This document shows, piece by piece, positions 16,891 through 38,563 of a stretch of 64,000 nucleotides of DNA. Source of the DNA: Okamejei kenojei (lineage: Eukaryota); NCBI GenBank assembly GCA_035221665.1, contig CM069167.1:18166001-18230000 (forward strand), given 5' to 3'. The notes beneath the pieces were generated by a model. That model searched no databases and was not told where the DNA came from. It was given only the letters and a program-made list of their open reading frames with translations. The translations under genes and the position numbers were made by a program. Each line of letters begins with the position of its first letter. The stretch's first letter is position 1.

Positions 16891-19084
16891 AGCAAACACT
16901 CATCATATCATCATTCCTGGATCATTGTCGTTCCTTGCGTTCCTTTGGCAATAACCTCCTGGATCAAGATTTTCCTTGATCTCCAGCACTTGAAACAGAT
17001 TATTCATTCACCTTATTCCTGTTCTTGGAGTACATTTTTTTCAACAAATAGCCCCCGTACTAATGTAATTCATTGTCCCGTAATGGAGCTATTTAACTGT
17101 AAATCAGATCGTGCGCACAGTTCAGAATTAATGTGCAGCAGCATTTTCAGCACAGACTGACCATGGCACACTCACTGCACCCATTGTCATCACTTTGTCT
17201 AGACTGAGTCATGTAGTGCAGAGCCTTGCCTTGGGAGACACCGTAGTCTTGGCTGAGGATACAGAAGGGAGCAGTGTTTTTGCTGTGTCTCACAGCTTGT
17301 AGTGAGAGGCAGGCGCCTTGTTCCAAGGCCTTTGTGTTTGGAGGGTAACATCCAGCAAACTCAGTGTGCCGCAGGGCTCAGTACTAATGTCAACGGTGAA
17401 TAGCAGAATTAGGCCCTTTGGCCCCAATACAAGTCTACTCTGCCATTCAATCATGGCTGATCTAACTCTCCCTCTCAACCCCATTCTCCTGCCTTCTCCC
17501 CAACAACCCCGGACAACCCGTATTAATCAAGAATCTGTTCATCTCTTCCTTAAAAATATCCAATGACATGGTCCCCACAACCGTGTGTGGCAATGCTGGG
17601 ACCCTTGCTGTCTGTCCAACCACGCATTAACGACAAAGTGGGGGGTAGATTAGTAAGTCTGCGATGATGAAACTATTAGTGGTGGTGTTGATAGTGACCA
17701 AGTAGTACCTCAGTCCACACAATCATGTTGATCATGGGTGAGTTGAGGCACAGCAACGGCAGATGAAGTTAACTCTGAAAGGTGTAAGTGGTGTGCATTT
17801 TGGGTGAACAAATTAGGGAGGGTATGATTCGTTAATGGTTGAGGCTGCGAAGTATTGAGGAGCATGGAGATCATGGTGTCCGTGTCCATAGATTTCAGAG
17901 GCAGCACAGATAGACACGGTGATGAAAAGACATACGGGATACTTGCCTTCATTAGTCGACATATAGATTACAAGAGCATGGAGGTTCTTGGACGAACTTT
18001 ATACAACAGGTCACAGCTTTCACATTTTGTGCAGTTTCTGGCAGTGTCCATGCTTTAGGAAGATGTGTTTGGACTGGAAGGATGCAATGGAGAGACTGGC
18101 TTAGTTTTCCTTGGCGTGAGGGAGACCCAAGAGGTGTGCAATGTTGTGAGAAGCTTCTCCCCACAGCAGGAGATCTAGACCAAGGGAACAGGTTCAAAGT
18201 GATGAGGTTTCAGTTGAGAGGGGTCTTTGAGGAAGTGCTTTTCCATTCGAGAGTTGGTGCAATCTATATCTCTCTGCCTGAGAACATTGGTGGAGGCAGA
18301 CTCTCTCAGAACCAGCATTTAAATTGCCAAATCATGAAGCAATAGACCAAGTCGCTGGAAAATGGGGATAGTAGCATTAGGCACTTACATGTGGTGGGCT
18401 GAAGGGCCTGGTGTGGGATGTATCACATTCTAACTCCATTTGGGAAGTAACATATGATCAGACAAGCAGGGTGAAGGCAGCCATATAAAGAGGTACAAGG
18501 TTTAAATAGAGGCCCCCACCCATCCCACAATTGGACATAAAGGATTCCATGGCCAAAGTGGAACAACTACCACAATAACAGCAGCAAATGTCAGACGTTC
18601 AGATGTCGGTGGAGAGCACATCACCCCCAGCAAGCTGGTTTGTCAATATCCACGGCTTTCATCAGTAAAACAGCCTGGTTTAGTTTAGAAATACAGCACA
18701 TTTACTGTACTGATGTAAAGTTGCACACTACGGCAACGATGCATGCAGGCAAATGCGTGCAATGAAATTACAGTTGAATCCATGCGGTGGAAGACTGGCC
18801 CGGCGTGGAGTCCATATCAGTGCATCACGTGCCGGGCTGTTGTGTGTCTTTGTTCCTGATATATTGTGTTTTTAATGGGCAGTGCATTGTATTATATTGT
18901 CCTGCATTTTTTTCTTCTCCTGATTAAAATGTTTATTGCAGCTGAGATTGCCGGGCTGTGGTGGCTTCTGCTTCTGGACCAGTTTCAGCTACTCACTGTC
19001 GTAGCTAAAGTTGGAGAATAGATGGATTTCAACATTCAACTCCCACCTCGAAGCCCTTTCTCACAACAAATTTACCACTAGGCT

Positions 19085-20029
19085 TCATAGGCTGAAGCCT
19101 CGGGCCTCGGAATCTGGCCGGCCTCCAGCCAAAGCAGGACACCTGCCGCTCAACTCTGGGCGGGTCCCCCTCGCTATCTCCGTCTCCGCCCGCCACCCGT
19201 GTCCGTGACCGTGTCCGTGTGTGTGTCCGTGACCGTGTCCGTGTGTGTGTCCGTGTCCGTGTCCGTGTGTGTGTCCGTGACCGTGTGTGTGTCCGTGTCC
19301 GTGTCCGTGTGTGTGTCCGTGTGTGTGTCCGTGTGTGTGTCCGTGACCCCGTACCTCCTGTTGTGTGTCCGTGTCCGTGTCCGTGTGTGTGTCCGTGTCC
19401 GTGAGTGTGTGTCCGTGTGTGTGTGACCGTGTCCGTTCCGTGTCCCGTGTGTGTGTGTCCGTGTCCGTGTGTGTGTCCGTGTCCGTGTGTCCGTGTCCGT
19501 GACCGTGTCCGTGTCCGTGACCGTGTCCGTCCGTGACCGTGTCCGTGTGCGTGTGTTCCGTGTCCCGTGTGTGTCCGGTCCGTGACCGTGTGTGTCCGTG
19601 TGTGTGTCCGGACCGTGTCCGTGTGTGTGTCCGTGTCCGTGTCCGTGTGTGTGTCCGTGTCCGTGTGTGTGTCCGTGTCCGTGTCCGTGTGTGTGTCCGT
19701 GTGTGTGTCCGTGTCCGTGTGTGTGTGTCCTGTCCGTGTGTGTGTCCGTGTCCGTGTGTGTGTCCGTGTCCGTGTCCGTGTGTGTGTCCGTGTGTGTGTC
19801 CGTGTGTGTGTCCGTGTGTGTGTCCATGTCCGTGTGTGTGTCCGTGTCCGTGTCCGTGTGTGTGTCCGTGTCCGTGTGTGTGTCCGTGTCCGTGTCCGTG
19901 TCCGTGTGTGTGTCCGTGACCGTGTCCGTGTCCGTGTCCGTGTCCGTGTCCGTGACCGTGTCCGTGTCCGTGACTGTGTCCGTGTCCGTGTCCGGGCCGC
20001 CGGGTCTCCGCTCTCCGCTCGCTCCTCAT
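19085..20029 (-). CDS. Possible low-complexity His/Gly/Thr-rich protein (repeat-encoded ORF)
   Basis: ATG in a GC-rich context (ggcggATG) just downstream of promoter motifs; a GT-AG intron at 19075-19005 and AATAAA at 18937-18932 follow. The repeat lacks stops, so the ORF alone is weak evidence. Confidence 0.3.
   Translation of the reverse strand: MRSERRAETRRPGHGHGHSHGHGHGHGHGHGHGHGHGHGHTHGHGHGHGHTHGHGHTHGHGHGHTHGHGHTHGHTHGHTHGHTHGHGHGHTHGHGHTHGQDTHTRTRTHTRTHTRTRTRTHTRTRTHTRTRTRTHTRTRSGHTHGHTRSRTGHTRDTEHTHTDTVTDGHGHGHGHGHGHGHTDTDTHTDTDTHTRDTERTRSHTHGHTLTDTDTHTDTDTDTQQEVRGHGHTHGHTHGHTHGHGHGHTHGHGHTHGHGHGHTHGHGHGHTHGHGHGHGWRAETEIARGTRPELSGRCPALAGGRPDSEARGFSL
19199..19992. repeat. Compound microsatellite of GTCCGT/GTGT/GACCGT units (~800 bp)
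   Basis: Directly visible. Confidence 0.97.
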
Positions 20030-20160
20030 CCGCCGGCACGGCCGGCCGCCTTACACATGCGCACTGCCACGGCAACTGGTCGGCGCTGGGCACTTTCTCC
20101 CTCGCTTTGAATTGTGGGAGATCTGGCCGCCATCGCTGTGTGCTCGCCGCGACCACTGAA
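19993..20160 (-). promoter_or_regulatory. CpG-island promoter with NRF1-like and RFX X-box-like motifs
   Basis: High CpG density; catgcgca (~20056-20063) next to ctgccacggcaac (~20064-20076). Confidence 0.5.
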
Positions 20161-21219
20161 AACCAACACAGAATCACTCCCTGGAGCTGGAGTAACTCCC
20201 TGGAGTATCTCTTGCTTCTGGTTTCCTGGTCCTCCAAAAATATTCTAAATGGAATTTAAACTGGAGGTGGTGGAGGGCTCAACAATAACAGCCTATTGCA
20301 TTGTATCTGTTTATTGTGTATATATGTGGTATATAAACACACTGACCCTTTACTTCCTCTTCTGTATTATGTTTAGATATTCTGTTGTGCTGCAGCAAGC
20401 AAGAATTTCATTGACCTTTCTGGGACACATGACAATAAAACTCTTGACTCTTGACTCGGACTTAAGCAAAAATAGGGTTCTTGGGGAAAAAAGAGAAACC
20501 TTAAATTTAGTTGCATCTGGTTGGGTACCTATGGGAGGGTGAAGACTATTCCATGCCTTAATTGTGCGGGGGAACTCCATGGTGCAGCCAGCAACTCTGG
20601 ATAGAAGAGATTGGGTGACTTTTCGGGTAGAGACCCTTCTTTAGACTCCCTCTGGTTTTAGTGTTTTTAGTTTAATTTAAAGATACAGCGTGGAAACCGA
20701 CCACCGATCACCTGTACACTAGTTCTATTCCACACATTAGCAGAGCAAGTCAAGAGTCACGAGTGTTTTATTCTCTCACGTCCCAGTTAGAACAATGAAA
20801 TCCTTACTTGCAGCAGCACAACAGAATATGTAAACATAGTACTCTGTAAACAATGTTATAAACGAGAAAACTAAACGGTGTATATTTATATATGAATATA
20901 TAACTGTGTGTGTGTGTGTATAATATATATACCCACACACACACAATTTCCCTCCTGGGATTAATAAAGTTCTATCGTAAAGTATCGTGTGTGTAGGAAA
21001 GATGCTGGTTTAAACTGAAGATGGACACAAAAAGCTGGAGTAACTCAACAGATCACACAGAATCTCTGAACAAAAGGAAAATATTAAATTTTGGGTTGGG
21101 TCTGAAATAGGTTCTTGCACACCTTTGGAATGTGGAAGGAAATTTTAGTTTAATTTAAAGATACAGCGTGGAAACAGGCCCTTCGGCCCACTTAGTCCTC
21201 TCCCCCCCTATCCACCATA

Positions 21220-23502: not shown

Positions 23503-25517
23503 TAGATATTCCAGGACGAGTGTTTGAGTGAAAGAGACTATCTGTTCTTATCAGAACAATTCTGGCGGTCCCTTGGGGACAAGGGCCATGGATTGCGGAG
23601 CAAAATCGAGGCTTAGAGGTGGATCCATGCTGGTTGGGAAACCAACCTAACACCTTAATCAGCCACAATGTCAGTAGGAGCAGGAGTACAGGGTATTCGG
23701 AAATACCCTGCGAATAAGCGTCAAAGGACCTCAGCAAGGGGACCCCCCCTTCTCACGAGACCTGTTCATGAAGAAGGTCTTGCTAGAGGCCTGCAAATTT
23801 GAGGCCAAGGACATCTACTGCCTCCAGGATCTCCCGGGTAACGGATATTTTGATGTTACCTTCAAGTATCCGACGGGATGGCAGAAGGTGATGGAAGACT
23901 TCCGGGAGAGGGGGAATGAAGCTCCGCTGTCGCTGCTGAAAGTGCAGCCGCTCTTCACCCTCCCCACCCAGAAGGAAAGGTTGATCACGGTGCACATGTT
24001 CAACCCACATGAGCTCGTAATGGATGTCCTCACCTTCCTTGCTCGCTAGGTTGAGGGAACAGGGAACTGTGTGGACATGAAGGACCTGCACGGGATTTGG
24101 ACCAGCAAGCGGCAAGTCAAGGTAAAGCCGAGGGTGGACAAGGACGGAGAAATCATCCACGCTCTCTCGGTTTTCGCGATTGGAGGAAACCGAGGATACT
24201 TGAGCTATGTGGGACAACCCAGGCTGTGCAGGAAATGCAACAAGCCTGGGCATGTGATGGCCCAATGCACTGCAGTTGTCTGCAAAAACTGCAAGATGGA
24301 GGTCCATGAGACAAAGGACTGTCAGGCCAGCAAGAACTGCAACCTGTGCGGGGAGGCAGGCCACCTTTACAGGGCTTGCCCTAAAAGAGCCTGCACCTAC
24401 GCACAGGCGACAAGAGGGGCTGCTGCCAGCACCCCCAAGGTGGGCGAGACACCCTCCACCACTGCCAAGACCCCAGCAGAAAGAGGGAACACGGATGAGG
24501 ACAGCCCAACCACCTCGAGGCCCCAAGTGCCAGAAGGAGACGCCCAGCATCCTGCCTAGGAGGGAGAGTCGATGGAGGAGGGGGAACAGCAGGAGAAATG
24601 GACAACGGTGAAGTACAAGAAGAGGGGTCAGCCCAAACAGCCGAGGCCGGAAAGGAGTGGTAAGTCCAAAAGTAAACCCCAAAAAAGGTCTCTTTCTCTT
24701 ACACAAGGCAACAACCTCTCCTCCTCGTCGGAGGATGAGGCGACCGGGAAGTCCCAACGAGGGAGGCAGAGGAAGAAAACGGGGGAGGAAAAGAGAGAGG
24801 CCACGACGATCACCTCCCAGCCTCAAGAGACCAAGAGCAGAGAGGTGGCCGAGAGGCTCCAGCCCCAGGACATCGGGAGCAGTGCAGCGGTCAAAGGGCT
24901 CCAGCCCCAGGACATCGGGAGCAGCGCAGTGGTCGAGGGTTTCCAGCCCCTGGAGACAGGGATCATCACAGAGGCCATTGGGCCCCAGCTACGGGAGACC
25001 GGAGTGCAGCGGCCATTGGGCCCCAGCTACAGGAGACAAAGGAAGCGGCATGCCCAAAAGGGGGTGGAACGAGAAGGCCCCCCACCAACGACACCTTTGG
25101 TTACGCCACCTGAAACTCACCTCACCGCTGGATTCCTGAGCCCAGGAAAGCTGAGGCAATTCACCGAAGCGGTGGGAATGAGGGGACATGGAAATGGTCA
25201 GTGACTCTAAAGACAATGGAGCTCAAACTGGCATCTTTAAACGTGCGCAGTATAAAGAGCACTGTGCGATGTGCTAATGCCTTACAGTACCTGGCCAAGG
25301 TCAAGGCAGATGTGACTTTTCTTCAGGAGTGCGGGCTGCCACACCTCCGCTGTTATCGGAGGTGGTCGCGATGGTGGCCCCGCGGACTGTTGGTGTGGTC
25401 GGGGGGAAATGACTGTCGTGCTTCCGGCCTGGGGATTTTGCTGCGGGGAGGGAACTTCGCCATCACTGAGGTCAGGGAAGTGGTTGGAGGGCGTCTCCTC
25501 GTGGTGGATGTTATGTA

Positions 25518-31920: not shown

Positions 31921-32677
31921 ACAGTGCGAAACAGGCCAGCACCAACCTACGATCCCCCCGCATACCTAATAACTATCCTACACACTCACAAGGGGCAATT
32001 AAAAACATTTATACCAAGCCAATCAGCCTCCAACCCTGTACATCTTTAGAGAGTGGGAGGAAACCGGAACGTCCTCCCGGAGTAAACTCACGAAGGTCAC
32101 AGAGAGAATAAATACAAACTCCACATCGTCAGAAACCATTAGAATACCCGAGAATAATTCACATATCACTGTACCTTAATTGGTAAACATGAATAAAAGA
32201 CCTCCGAAACCTTTGAACCACGGGCGTGAAAATTCTACATTTCTCCCCAAAATACACGAAACACACCTGGACAGAACCTGGGAAATACGTTCAGGAAGGC
32301 CTATTGTGTGTGACTGTGGCAGTGAACCTATCGGGTAGCAGAATACATCGATTTTCTTCTTAATCCACTGGCACTGCAGATCCTCTACTTCAGACCACAT
32401 CACATTCCGACTGTGCCACCTGATGTTGTACACTTACATGGACATCGAAGGCCCGTCCACAAACAGAACAGGCAGGAACATACAACAGTTAAACATATCT
32501 CAGAGAAAAATGCTGACCCTGACAGACTAGGCGAGGCTTTGGTCTAGAAGTGGCCCGGGCAATCAATGTCTTTTCACCAAGAACTGGATGACATTTGGGA
32601 ATGTCACATTCAGAAACAGAGTCAGAGGAATTCATTCACATCTTTCACACACACCACCAAGGTTAAACACCACAAAC

Positions 32678-33892
32678 AAGTCAGTGGTGGGCAAATTAAT
32701 GGAAAGGATACTTAGAGATAATATATATAAGCATCTGGATAAACAGGGTCTGATCAGGAACAGTCAACATGGATTTGTGCCTGGAAGGTCATGTTTGACA
32801 AACCTTCTTGAATTTTTTGAAGCGGTAACTAGGGAAATTGATGAGGGTAAAGCAGTGGATGTTGTCTATATGGATTTCAGTAAGGCCTTTGACAAGGTTC
32901 CCCATGGAAGGTTGGTTAAGAAGGTTCAATCTTTGGGTGTTAATGGCGGAGTAGCAAGATTGATTCAAACAGTGGCTGAATGGGAGAATATCAGAGAGTA
33001 ATGGGTGATGGCCTGTTTGTCAGGTTGGAAAGCCGGTGACCATGGGGCCTCAGGGATCCTGTGTTTGGGTCCACTGTTTGTTTGTCATGTACATCAATGA
33101 TCTGGATGATGGGTGGAAAATTGGGATAAGTAAGTATGCAGATGATACTAAGATAGGTGGTGTTGTGGATAATGAAGTAGATTTTCAAAGTCTACAGAGA
33201 GATTTGGGCCATTTGGAAAAGTGGGCTGGAAGATGGCAGATGGAAGTTTAATGCTGATAAGTGTGAAAATGCTACATCTTGGCAGGACAAATCAAATAGG
33301 ACGTACATGGGTAAATGGTAGGGAATTGAGGAATGCTGTGGAACAGAGGGATCTAGGAATAACTGTGCATAGTTCCCTGAAGGTGGAATTGCATGTCATA
33401 GGGTGGTAAAGAAAGCCTTTGGTGTGCTGGCCTTTATAAATCAGAGCATTGAATTATAGGAGTAGGGAAGTAATGCTTAAATAAGAAGGTTAAGGGGGAC
33501 TTGATTGGTCTTTAAAATGATGAAAGGGATAGACAGAGTTGACGTGGATACGTTTTTCCACCCATTGAGGGTAGGGAAAGTTTCAAACAAGATGGCATGA
33601 CATGAGAATTAAATGACAGAGGTTTCGGGGGTAACGTGAGGAGGAACTTCTTTACTCAGAGGGTGGTGGCTGTGTGGAATCAGCTTCCAGCAGAAGTGGT
33701 GGAGGCAGGATCGATTTTAACATTTAAGAGTAAAGTGGATAGGTATATGGACGTGAAGGGAATGGAGGGGTATGGTCTGAGTGCAGGTAGATGGGACTAG
33801 GGGAAAACAAATGGTCGGCACGGACTGGAAGGGCCGAGAGGGCCTGTTTCCGTGCTGTAATTGTTATATGGTTATATGGTTATATGGTTATA
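32678..33892 (+). mobile_element. CR1 LINE RT fragment with internal deletion
   Basis: SQHGFVPGRSCLTNLLEFFE...VDVVYMDFSKAFDKVPH, YADDTKIGG; tail ggttatat x3. Confidence 0.92.
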
Positions 33893-34896
33893 TTGACTTT
33901 CTGGACTTTCCGGACCTCTTTCCCTGATGAAACTGCAGACAAATCAAAACTGGAAGATTGTTGTTGCCCAGTCGTGGACACCACTGGATTGAATTGGCAT
34001 TAGAGAACGTGGGCACAGTGGTGTAGCTGGTCGAGCGGCTGCCCCACAGCGCCAGAGACCCGGTTTAATCCCGACCTCCAATGCTGTGTGTGGAGTTTGC
34101 ACGTTCACCCTGTGACCGCATGGGTTTTTCTCATGGACTCAGGGCTCGAAATTAACGGTTGCCTGGGTGCCAATGACCACCCAAAGTGCCGCCGGGCAAC
34201 CTAAACGCCGACTCATTTTGCCCGGCTCTTGGCAGCAAATACGGTTTATACCGATAGACACATAAAACTGGAGTATCTCCGCGGGTCAGGCAGCATCTGT
34301 GGAGAATAGGAACATAACATTTTGTGTCGACGGCGGCGGCTGTATTCCTCTAGTATCTTTGATTGCGGGGCAAAGATAGGATCGGAGCGATTGACAGGTC
34401 TCGAACAGTGGCAACAGCAGCTCCACCGTCTCCTCCTTCCGTACCCCGCCCGGCGGAAAGAGGCCTCCCACTCCCTCCCTCCCTCCCGGCCTCAGCGTGC
34501 GAGAGGGGTTGTTTTGAAAGCGCTGTTGGTGGATTTGCAGCAGTAGCTCTTGATTTGCAGGCAGCGGCGCTAATCGCCCTGATAACGTTATCGCCCCGTT
34601 AACAGCGCGGTCAAAACAACCCCTCTTGCAGTCGAGGCCGGAGGAGGGAGAGGGGGGAGAGAGGGAGGAGGGAGGGGGGGGAGAGGGGAGAGAGGAGAGA
34701 GGGAACCCAGGGAGGGAGGGGGGAGGGAGAGAGTGAGAGAGTGCGAGAGGAGGAGGGAGGGAGGGGGAGAGTGGAGAGTGAGAGATGAGAGAGAGGGGAG
34801 TGAGAGAAGAGGAGGGGAGAGAGGGAGTGAGAGAGAGAGAGAGAGGGAGGGAGGGAGGGAGGGGGAGGCCTCCTTCCGCCGACTGAGCAGCTGCAA

Positions 34897-34924
34897 CAAA
34901 GATCCTATAGCTATAGGATCTTTG
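34897..34924. repeat. 28-bp perfect palindrome with 8-bp flanking direct repeat
   Basis: agctgcaa|caaagatcctatagctataggatctttg|agctgcac. Confidence 0.85.
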
Positions 34925-35169
34925 AGCTGCACCGCTAGCCCCGCACCTTGCTGTTGGCTGGCGAGGAGATGCACACACCGCCTCCCACTTTGGCTGCGGC
35001 ACTTTGGCGTTGGATAGGGACGGCCAAGGCAGCGGGGCAATGTTGTCCAAGGAGCGCTGACCTTCCTTCCTCCTCCCCCCCCCGCTACCCTTCCCCCCCA
35101 CTCTCTCTCGCATGCCCCCTCTCCACCCCCCCTAGCTTAATCCTGGGACCCCTCTTCTCCATCCCCCAC

Positions 35170-35672
35170 TGATCCCCATTCCCTCCCTCTATTCAGTCCT
35201 CACTGACATCCCCTGTGCTCCCCCCTCACAAACCCCCAATCTATGAATCACCCAAATAAAACCCTACCCACCGTGCATTGATTCTCTGTCATCCCCCCAT
35301 CCATCCAACACTGACCCCCCCACCCATCCATCCATCGCACTGATAAACCATTCTACCATTTGATCCCGTACTGACCCCACCTTCCATTTACCCTGCGCAC
35401 TAAACCCCCCCATCCCATCCTGTAGTGATCTTCCCATTCATCTTTTACTGATCTCCCATTCATCCTGTACTGAATCCCCTCATGCATCCTGTACTAATCC
35501 CTTCAAAATTCATCCCGTCCTGATCCCCACGCCTTCATCCTGTACTGATCCCCTCATTCATCCTGCAATGATCCCCCTCATTCATCTGTAATGATCCCCC
35601 ATTCCTCCTGCACTGGAGACCCACACCCCCTTTCATCCTGTACTGATCCACCCCATTCATCCTGTGCTGATC
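35170..35672. repeat. Degenerate ~20-bp minisatellite (catcctgtactgatcccccatt)
   Basis: Directly visible tandem units. Confidence 0.85.
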
Positions 35673-36578
35673 CTCGCAACCTGTAGATTTTGTATATGGC
35701 TAAATTATGTGGCGAAGTCAGAGTTTTTCTGTGCCAACAGCTATAACGGACCCATGCTATGGGCCATCAACCCAAGTCCCATGGTAATTTTCGGTCCTTC
35801 ACAGAAAAACATGCTTGCATCAATCTGTCGTGTGCATGGTCCAGGATTTATTGACACAGGTTGAACCATAATCATTTTGCTGAATAATCCAACCACATTT
35901 TTGTTTGGACGTGGAAAGAACTAATAGAAATAGCATTAAAAATTGCAATGAGGAAAAAAAGTTGACATATTGTATTATAATTTTGCTGCATGTCATTGTG
36001 GTATATATCAAGGTCTTGAATGGTGAATATGTTTAGTTTGTGAGTTATTTGAAGCAAAAATAATTAATGTTGAAATGTAGACAAAAGTGCTGGAGAAAAC
36101 TCAGCGGATGCGGCAGCACTATGGAGGAAAGAAATAGGCAACGTTTCGGGCTGGGGGGGGGGGGGGGGGGGGGGGCGAAAACCCTTCCTTCAGACTGATG
36201 GGTTTCGGCCCTGAAACATTGCCTATTTCCTTCGCTCCATAGATGCTGCTGCACCCAGCTGAGTTTCTCCAGCACTTTTGTCTACCTTCGATTTTCCAGC
36301 ATCTGCATTTCCTCTTGAACATAATATGTGAATTGCTTCATTGAGCATAATTCTGACTTTGTCCGAGCACATTATCGCACGTGTCATGCAAACCGTCTTA
36401 AATGACCACCTAAACTGTCATTTGGCAACCTAAAAAGCTGGCAGGTCGAGGTTGCCCGGCTGGCAACAGGGGAAAAAAAGTTAAGCGAGTGCCCACCTGC
36501 TGGTGCTCTCGTTTTCCCAAACATTCCAAACACGTGCAGGTTTGCATGTTAATTGGCCTCTGTAAATTGCTCCCAGTG

Positions 36579-38563
36579 CAGAGATGCCAACCTTCCAGAG
36601 CACAAATCAGTAATCATAAGGCTAAAAATCAGTAATTTGGAGACAAAATCAGTAATTTTTTTTGCGCGAAGCAATTTTTTTTCTGCATGATGGCAAGCGC
36701 GGCTCCCACAGGCAAGCGATAGCGCATAATGTTAACATTAACATACCTGTATGTTCATTAGTTGGTATTACATAAACATGTATTAACTCACCATTGAAAA
36801 TGCTCTATTGAAAGACAGGATTAACGAGTTCATTATCAATATGTCTTGATAATGTTTATAACACACACACTCAACAATACATATATACGCGCACACACAC
36901 ACACACACAACACAGACACACTCCACCTCACACAGAACCCAAACTCAAATTACACATACGAATATGAGGGCAAACCAGAAACACACACAGACACACACAC
37001 ACACAACACACAGGCCACAACACACACACTCCAGTGATGGAAATGGTTTAGGAACTAAGGGTACTCTGGGTCTGTGAAGCTGAGGTTGGGAAGGAGGGGG
37101 GGGGGGGGACTCTGTCTCTGTCTGTGTGTGTGTGTTGGCTGCAGCCATCGTCTGCTTTAGTGAGGGAAGCAGGTCGGTGATTGATCAAAAGCCCCTAAGA
37201 CGACTGTCTGATTGGCTGCCAAGACCAGCGCATTATGTGATTGGACACAATGCCCTTGGAGACGGCGCTGATTGGGTTGGGAGGAGACCGATTTATTGGA
37301 TTGACGGGAATTTTAAGGGTAGCTTTGGTCCGGTGATTGGACGCAACCCACTTAGAGACAGTCGTTGATTGGCCACCAAATAATCGGGCGCGAAAAAATA
37401 AAAATAGGAAAAACAATAAAATCGAAATTACGATTTAAATCGGAAGAATATCATGCCTGATCTGCAGCAAAGATACTAATATCCGCTCTAGTATCTTTGG
37501 ATCTGCAGTTCCTTCCTATTGAACAAGAACCCTGGCCCGAAACAACTTGTAAATCCATTCTCTCCACAGATGCCGCGAAGCCCGCTGAGTTTCCTCCAGC
37601 ACTCTGTGTTTTTTATTTAACTCTTGAAATTTTAAGTTAGACATACAGCTGGAGTAACTCAACGGGACAGGCAGCGACTGGAGAGAAGACTCTTTTTCAG
37701 AATGAAACTGAACTCTCGTCGGTGAGAGTACTTGTGATTATCTGCAGAAGGATCTCGAACCAGAAAAGTCATCCACTCCCCAGAGCCGGCGCCCGTCCCA
37801 CTGAGCCACCCAGTCCCCCCCCACCCCCTCCCCCTTATAATTTCCGTACTTTTTTCGATAGCTGCCATGACCCATTTGATGTCATCCTGCACCCTGCTCC
37901 CTGGTCCCGGCCCGCGCCGATCTGCGTGTGTGTGTGTGTCGGAGTCTGCGCGGAGAAGCGCCGGCACCAAGAGTGAGTGAATGCATGGACAGACGGACGA
38001 AAGCAACCATCGTAGAGCGCAATAGGTGACATTTTGGGCAGAGACCCTTCTTCAGACTGACAATCAAGGGAAAGAAACGGGAGGCATATATTATTCCATT
38101 CGTTTGTCTTTAGTGCCATCTATATCTATTGTTCCTCTTTCCCCTGACGGTCTGAAGAAGGGTCACCAATCCGCAATGTCATCTATGATCGTTCCTTTCG
38201 CCCGTCTGTCTCCACAAAAAAAAAAAAAAAAAAAAATAAAAAAAAAACCGATTGTTCGCTCGTCCTTGGATTAAGTAGCGCAGGATAAAGCTGGGAATTC
38301 ATGCACAGGATGGAAAACTGGAACGAGGAGAACGTCGTCCCTCTGCGTACCCCCCCATATTTCCATCACTGGCACTCACACACCTCACACAATCACACTA
38401 AAACCGACACTCACACACTCCCAAACCACACACAATTATGTGCTAACTTAAATCGGCAAAAATCCGGGATTTACGATATGAAAATCGTACGCCCGTAATT
38501 GGCACCAATTTTCCGTAGAAATTACGGGAAATCGTACCAGCATATTACTAAATGGCATCTCTG
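36579..38563. mobile_element. Non-autonomous hAT5-like DNA transposon
   Basis: 11-bp TIR cagagatgcca / tggcatctctg; 5-bp TSD cagtg; aaatcagtaat x3 and cgta/tacg subterminal repeats. Confidence 0.8.
37468..37499. repeat. 32-bp mini inverted-repeat element with 9-bp flanking direct repeat
   Basis: gatctgcag|caaagatacta-atatccgctc-tagtatctttg|gatctgcag. Confidence 0.85.

Follow-up and report, generated by a model that had tools for sequence, protein, structure and literature searches.

Short head-to-head transposon ends in Okamejei kenojei DNA as candidate donor-site scars of a P-like transposase

The stretch of Okamejei kenojei DNA analysed here is 64,000 nucleotides long (contig CM069167.1 of assembly GCA_035221665.1, positions 18,166,001 to 18,230,000, forward strand) and is referred to as the window. 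It contains two short stubs, stub 1 and stub 2, which are transposon ends with target-site duplications, each running from CAAAGAT to ATCTTTG. Stub 2 is an insertion relative to an empty site, because contigs from related organisms skip exactly the stub and one copy of its duplication. We lean, if only slightly, towards reading the stubs as donor-site scars of a P-like cut-and-paste transposase whose cuts lie far within the element's inverted repeats. The stubs are inert; neither an Rfam match nor a coding match was found across them, so there is no sign of function at the locus. An original prediction, made from the letters alone, had named four features here (the two stubs, a pair of adjacent ends and a 12-bp stub) as a record of repeated insertion and excision by a P/THAP9-like transposase in a vertebrate. 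The coordinates given for all four are correct.

Two stubs and an empty site

The positions of the stubs and of the surrounding features are collected in Table 1. A terminus-blind scan of the 64 kb, for inverted repeats of at least 7 bp, 14–60 bp long and flanked by an 8- or 9-bp repeat with at most one mismatch, returned stub 1 and stub 2 only. Order-3 Markov simulations of the local composition (n = 150) gave a mean of 0.25 such matches, with two or more in 1.3%, and none of the 150 contained two matches with a common 7-bp end. Chance palindromes or local duplications, of no transposon origin at all, would explain the 12-bp feature discussed below, and the single match that a looser degenerate pattern gave in 596 Gb of prokaryote genomes (L023), rejected as a stub, is a terminator-like hairpin without a duplication. 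For stubs 1 and 2 a chance origin is largely refuted and hardly credible, given the simulations, the empty-site joint and the presence of the same end with varied duplications elsewhere. The 28-bp and 32-bp inverted-repeat stubs with direct-repeat flanks are borne out, both as structures beyond chance in the simulations and the second also by its empty site.

The duplications at 34889–34896 and 37460–37467 agree at six of eight letters, in the same orientation, and both have a TGCA core. The predicted tgca core in the flanks holds for both true window stubs and fails as a family trait: TGCA lies within 10 bp of either end in none of the 12 related metagenome loci described below, and a family-wide TGCA target rule was rejected on this count.

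For stub 2, contigs from 4 of 21 runs, representing four organisms and four studies, were aligned to the window at 80% likeness. The runs are relatives (the best word share with the window is 0.27, and none reaches half). The joint 37458>37500 omits 41 bp (32 + 9), with nine letters that fit either side, as predicted for an empty site. It is present in three of the four runs, from three studies, with two contigs in X1, one in X8, one in X10 and none in X14; both duplications are kept at the filled site. The relatives also differ from the window within the stub: a G in place of A at 37479 (51, 35, 33 and 25 contigs in the four runs) makes the inverted repeat 12 bp long in most of their copies, and one missing G at 37499 (25, 16, 13 and 13 contigs) turns the 9-bp duplication into an 8-bp one.

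In each run 25–51 contigs carry stub 2, in all four related organisms, and several pieces include both flanks (pieces spanning the stub cover 37410–37631, 37414–37547, 37435–37588 and 37443–37576). Because far more contigs carry the stub than the empty site, with shared flanks, stub 2 lies within a multi-copy host repeat; the surroundings of stub 1 and of the orphan ends described below are likewise multi-copy in the relatives. Stub 2 thus appears to be an old event that has been copied passively as a passenger of an amplified host repeat. Repeated insertion and excision at this locus, as originally proposed, found no support, stub 2 riding on a multi-copy repeat and the 12-bp stub being at chance level.

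Table 1. Stubs, ends and associated repeats in the window and in one related locus
Feature	Position	Strand	Description
Stub 1	34897..34924	.	Perfect 28-bp palindrome; two 14-bp transposon ends head to head, CAAAGAT...ATCTTTG
Stub 1, left target-site duplication copy, 8 bp	34889..34896	+	One mismatch to the right copy
Stub 1, right target-site duplication copy, 8 bp	34925..34932	+	One mismatch to the left copy
Stub 2	37468..37499	.	32 bp; exact 11-bp inverted ends, short asymmetric middle, CAAAGAT...ATCTTTG
Stub 2, left duplication copy, 9 bp (or 8 bp)	37459..37467	+	Exact repeat of the right copy
Stub 2, right duplication copy	37500..37508	+	Many relatives' copies without one G at 37499/37500, giving 8 bp
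Second stub family	L005:430-467		38 bp, CATGG ends, exact 17-nt inverted repeat, 8-bp duplication; from terminus-blind scan of the loci
Orphan right end	34348..34361	.	Same sequence as the final 14 bp of stub 2
9-bp spacer between orphan ends	34362..34370	+	Candidate shared target duplication of a putative double insertion
Orphan left end	34371..34385	.	Third related end type; 7–8 bp in common with the stubs
Old nested insertion block	34140..36494 (right limit ~36494)	.	Interrupts SINE-like repeat; holds orphan ends and stub 1
Fold-back host segment	34451..34881	.	Inverted arms 34451–34487/34845–34881 and 34471–34527/34601–34659; multi-copy in relatives
12-bp spacer between exact 8-bp repeats	34533..34560 (spacer 34541–34552)	.	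Rejected as family member
Multi-copy host repeat carrying stub 2	37115..37630 (approximate limits)	.	Relatives' contig pieces span the stub

Sites with the same end in metagenome assemblies

The 14-bp end of stub 1 is found, identical, in 12 loci (L001–L012) of two metagenome assemblies. The pattern used consisted of both 14-bp arms with a gap of 0–30 bp, so that it reaches up to 58 bp and longer elements fall outside it. The flanks of these loci do not match the window; their longest frames are of 78–164 aa, with a few reverse-transcriptase, PHD and DUF4517 matches, and by their sequence they look like eukaryotic host DNA. Candidate causes for a 14-bp end shared with non-matching, apparently eukaryotic DNA are conservation within a transposase clade and horizontal transfer. 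In viral contigs neither stub pattern gave a match; ten single-end matches there, none with a partner end within two mismatches, were treated as chance.

Three of the loci (L001, L005 and L012) are homologous, leaving 10 independent sites with lengths of 33, 36, 38, 38, 40, 46, 48, 49, 49 and 51 bp. The predicted length mode at or below about 34 bp is not seen, with one of these 10 sites in that range, all of them from other organisms than the window. No site measures 52–58 bp, which hints weakly at an upper limit of about 50 bp.

Six sites (L002, L003, L006, L008, L009 and L010) share a longer end. Their duplications, of 8, 8, 8, 9, 8 and 8 bp, all differ from each other, each with at most one mismatch between its copies, and the sites fit as nested joins of two ends of up to 25 nt, with a junction that is ambiguous over 1–4 nt and 0–2 mismatches. 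The other four sites have a 17-nt end in common, with middles that are unrelated, and in L001 and L007 the inverted repeat is exactly 17 nt. Stub 1 fits the end of this second group as 15+15−2. Up to 17 nt of parent end per side is compatible with the window stubs (28 and 32 bp) and with L001, L002, L004, L007 and L011; this limit is exceeded in L003, L006, L008 and L009, in which 22–25 nt are common to sites, and L010 is borderline.

The second stub family, in L005, has both duplications kept and a clean empty site in the homologous L012, and L001 is also without the stub. It is a cleaner, younger example than the window stubs. The recent 38-bp stub, which one of three homologous loci has and the other two lack, together with two 49-bp copies (L003 and L006) that stand at different sites of different assemblies with perfect 24-bp arms and perfect duplications, is what would be expected if the stubs were tiny mobile hairpins, about 49–51 bp at full length and moved by a transposase in trans, with the shorter ones arising by central deletion of an unstable palindrome. 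We consider this improbable. The 10 sites have eight different lengths, unlike a miniature inverted-repeat transposable element (MITE) family, and the uniform length and many copies at unrelated sites of such a family were not observed in this small sample. P transposase requires internal binding sites beyond the terminal repeat (PMC7776569), pairing of ends 30–50 bp apart would probably be sterically hard, and the many contigs with stub 2 have their flanks in common, which is host amplification.

Two of the loci have further repeats. In L007 (1488–1561) the direct repeat on either side of the 48-bp stub is 13 bp long and has two mismatches, in place of the usual 8–9 bp. L004 contains an 86-bp hairpin (2345–2430) and a 1.1-kb inverted-repeat element (1143–2217) with other ends.

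Orphan ends, a rejected feature and host repeats

Adjacent right and left ends had been predicted at 34348–34385. Their coordinates stand, and a junction of a right end, a 9-bp gap and a left end was found in none of 40 simulations; partner ends are what the window lacks. Neither orphan end has a partner end with a matching duplication within the window, and no outer copy of the 9-mer at 34362–34370 lies beside a matching end between 30000 and 40000. The two ends probably go back to two insertions into a single target site, the outer portions of which have since disappeared. A variant at 34330, just upstream of the orphan right end, is carried by 35, 34, 32 and 15 contigs, the stretch being multi-copy in the relatives.

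The 12-bp stub between atttgcag repeats (34533–34560) was rejected as a member of the family. Its inverted ends are just CA..TG; exact 8-bp repeats that enclose 8–16 bp with CA..TG ends occurred in 14 of 40 simulations, and the window has 533 exact 8-bp repeats at such spacing when the ends are disregarded. Furthermore, 57 and 37 contigs of two runs have a T at 34549 (the other two runs being without cover), so that the right end in the relatives is unlike that of the family.

The window is repeat-rich, contains no N, and the only Pfam domains in the frames scanned are from retro-elements. The reverse-transcriptase frame at 32531–32998 has 93 matches, of which the nearest from named animals are rays and sharks: Mobula (76 and 69% identity), Hypanus (75 and 71%), Hemiscyllium (72%) and Scyliorhinus (66–69%), as against 41–57% for birds and turtles. 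Three bacterial-named entries (63–73%) and unnamed entries (up to 87%) also matched. The vertebrate setting assumed originally is supported by this frame, which points to a cartilaginous fish, probably a ray, as the host.

Both flanks of the nested insertion block are colinear with an uninterrupted SINE-like copy at about 1890–2110, and the ends of the block look hAT-like. The fold-back segment within it has a fold z-score of −5.7, and an opposite-strand joint 34451>34886 is present in two of the four relatives' runs. Its right arm is purine-rich and the arms are unequal; in some relatives' copies they are somewhat longer. Elsewhere, 23678–25515 is presumably a decayed Tx1-type LINE: its first frames encode zinc-knuckle and ZCCHC3-like RNA-binding domains, and an endonuclease-like frame comes after them. 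A hexamer-type tandem repeat of about 1 kb (19029–20259) opens several long low-complexity frames. A degenerate minisatellite with a 23–24-bp unit (about 8.5 plus 2 copies) lies at 35416–35673, and 36074–36288 and 37988–38210 are short inverted-repeat elements whose copies are very numerous in the related runs.

Origin of the stubs and comparison with known systems

As donor-site scars, the stubs would have formed as follows. An element with CAAAGAT ends inserts and duplicates 8 or 9 bp of target, an event seen for stub 2 and likely for stub 1. The transposase would then make a long staggered cut inside the terminal repeats, as P biochemistry suggests, leaving the outer part of the repeat as single-stranded tails on the donor. 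Judging from the anatomy of the junctions, host end joining may seal the tails at microhomologies of 1–4 nt, sometimes after a short fill-in or gap-repair synthesis, giving a palindromic stub of 28–51 bp between both duplications. A scar within a host repeat that later multiplied, as seen for stub 2, would become a passenger in many copies and several related species. The insertions themselves (stub 2 and L005, each relative to an empty site), the duplication size and the host amplification are observed; the staggered cut, the route of repair and the superfamily are inferred.

Several properties agree with the P superfamily. In the window stubs and the metagenome loci the terminal repeats start with CA and end with TG, as expected of this superfamily. 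The duplications are of P-type size (7–8 bp, or 8–9 bp in one family), 8 and 9/8 bp in the window and, among the 10 related sites, 8 bp in five and 9 bp in one. In Drosophila the cut made by P transposase has a stagger of 17 nt (PMC7776569). The excision donor keeps 17-nt tails; among the joins that result, 14 isolates have 30 bp and 5 have 32 bp, and those with insertions reach 44 bp, all lying between the two 8-bp duplications (PMC2895639 Table 1). Duplications of 8 and of 9 bp are made by one P family (PMC3698922). In stub size, in mixed 8/9-bp duplications and in microhomology at the junctions, the stubs match P donor-site repair as given in these two sources (PMC2895639 Table 1; PMC3698922).

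Other observations weigh against a donor-scar origin. No parent element with these ends was found in the window, only the two orphan ends, and there is no P or THAP Pfam match in 163 window frames of at least 85 aa (those starting at 18900–20300 excluded) or in 95 frames of L001–L012; absence of a transposase beside stubs is expected, and has no bearing on the rest of the genome. An empty-site joint for stub 1 is absent from the 15 joints listed, beyond which a further 391 exist; a missing joint among those 15 carries no evidential weight for stub 1 or the orphan ends. The joint of stub 2 consists of only four contigs and has the label 'between: not known'; a short side of over 30 letters is seen in the X10 contig alone. 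Reading stub 2 as 17+17−2 was dropped as evidence, any 32-mer reading so, and, as a single mismatch separates the 38-bp stub in L005 from perfect 19+19 symmetry, the 17 nt of its inverted repeat could be a coincidence. The four sites with the 17-nt end lack a clean 8–9-bp duplication (0 of 6 rows), and templating of their middles is weak, with shuffle fractions of 0.02–0.04 for the site seen three times and 0.66–1.0 for the other three. Lengths above 34 bp occur at nine of the 10 independent sites in the related loci, which a plain 17+17 model would not lead one to expect. In the six-site group the sequence past nucleotide 17 is common to sites and is therefore parent-derived, not random fill-in; it needs a longer stagger, short gap-repair synthesis, or stagger-free deletion of a long-armed element.

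The last of these is an explanation in its own right, which we regard as possible though less likely. The stubs may be deletion remnants of a longer element of any superfamily with 8–9-bp duplications (P, hAT or MuDR), whose interior was lost by abortive gap repair or by hairpin-stimulated replication slippage from one short repeat to another in long inverted arms, as in the 'nearly precise excision' of Tn10, without any long stagger. The nested lengths up to 49–51 bp, the parent sequence past nucleotide 17 and the microhomology at every junction fit such deletions, and the window stubs sit among fold-back DNA. Microhomology-mediated miniaturisation has been described for mariner MITEs (PMC3814204) and nearly precise excision driven by slippage has been reported too (PMC12524634). 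Deletion does less well with the lengths: three end types in two organism groups all collapse to 28–51 bp, and none of 10 sites has 52–58 bp (about 0.08 for a flat distribution by hand arithmetic, a weak point). Neither the 64-kb window nor the 23.6 kb of loci, a small sample, contains an element of intermediate size with matching ends and a duplication. The product left by the deletion routes is the same as that of donor-scar repair.

P elements have a five-letter terminal consensus, and CA..TG-type ends also occur in hAT and Novosib elements. CAAAG fits the hAT end consensus and 8-bp duplications are also those of hAT, which counts against assigning the ends to P. Excision scars of hAT elements, on the other hand, consist of flanking DNA processed via hairpins, with no terminal repeat kept. 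The stubs carry one conserved end, with the same palindrome arms between unrelated flanks, and a hAT-type footprint was rejected for this reason. A literature search for the P end consensus by name gave nothing relevant, and matches to the end motifs were unrelated by title among those listed. The open literature searched (including PMC5753468), on P footprints in vertebrates and at genome scale and on P elements of cartilaginous fishes, describes neither these ends nor any natural P-type scar from that group; Repbase, Dfam, subscription journals and supplements lay outside this search, and an entry for the family may exist in them.

For P, the long stagger of the cut is known from measurements in Drosophila. 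If the stubs are true donor scars, they document that P-type transposition took place in cartilaginous fishes, and they would allow stagger length and repair pathway to be estimated at genome scale for extinct elements. A much bolder version, which we think doubtful, is an undescribed P-like clade, marked by the identical 14-bp end, that cartilaginous fishes have in common with distant hosts, apparently invertebrates; its stagger would be about 24–25 nt in at least one subfamily, as against the 17 nt of Drosophila, and its scars would persist genome-wide; the length spectra of stubs would then give the cutting geometry of the transposase directly from genome sequence. Should the stubs be ordinary remnants of deletion, they would deserve no more than a brief remark in annotation. 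Repeat annotation probably misses stubs of 28–50 bp.

Among described systems, donor repair of the Drosophila melanogaster P element is similar in leaving short head-to-head remains of the terminal repeat between two intact 8-bp duplications (PMC2895639). The window stubs are of 28–32 bp, the commonest short-microhomology joins of Drosophila P of 30–32 bp, and microhomology or inserted letters are present at the junctions of both (PMC2895639). The Drosophila products arise from 17-nt 3' tails by non-homologous end joining or polymerase theta, whereas the window stubs are natural, old and amplified in host repeats of a cartilaginous fish; their end sequence is another one, and the related stubs retain as many as 24–25 nt of the parent end on each side. 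For zebrafish, P-like elements that make 8-bp duplications have been described (PMC10983969). Pdre/THAP9 of that vertebrate also has CA..TG ends and 8-bp duplications, with 13-bp repeats as compared with 11–14 bp here, although only the first letters of the printed Pdre2 terminal repeat agree with the window ends, and excision by zebrafish THAP9 in cells gave flanking deletions, no tidy stubs being described in the text covered (PMC10983969). P-MITEs are known from Anopheles (PMC1562414). BuT5 and P elements of the repleta group make both 8- and 9-bp duplications, as here, but BuT5 is a 1-kb MITE with 3-bp terminal repeats (PMC3698922). The usual junction of tandem P dimers, right and left ends separated by one duplication (bioRxiv 158386), resembles the right end, duplication-sized spacer and left end at 34348–34385, except that the two ends in the window are of different subtypes and the outer ends and duplications are missing. 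Finally, nearly precise excision of Tn10 and miniaturisation of MITEs also leave a short palindromic remnant between duplications with a short-repeat junction; they differ in needing no transposase stagger, and they predict long inverted arms in the parent element (PMC12524634, PMC3814204).

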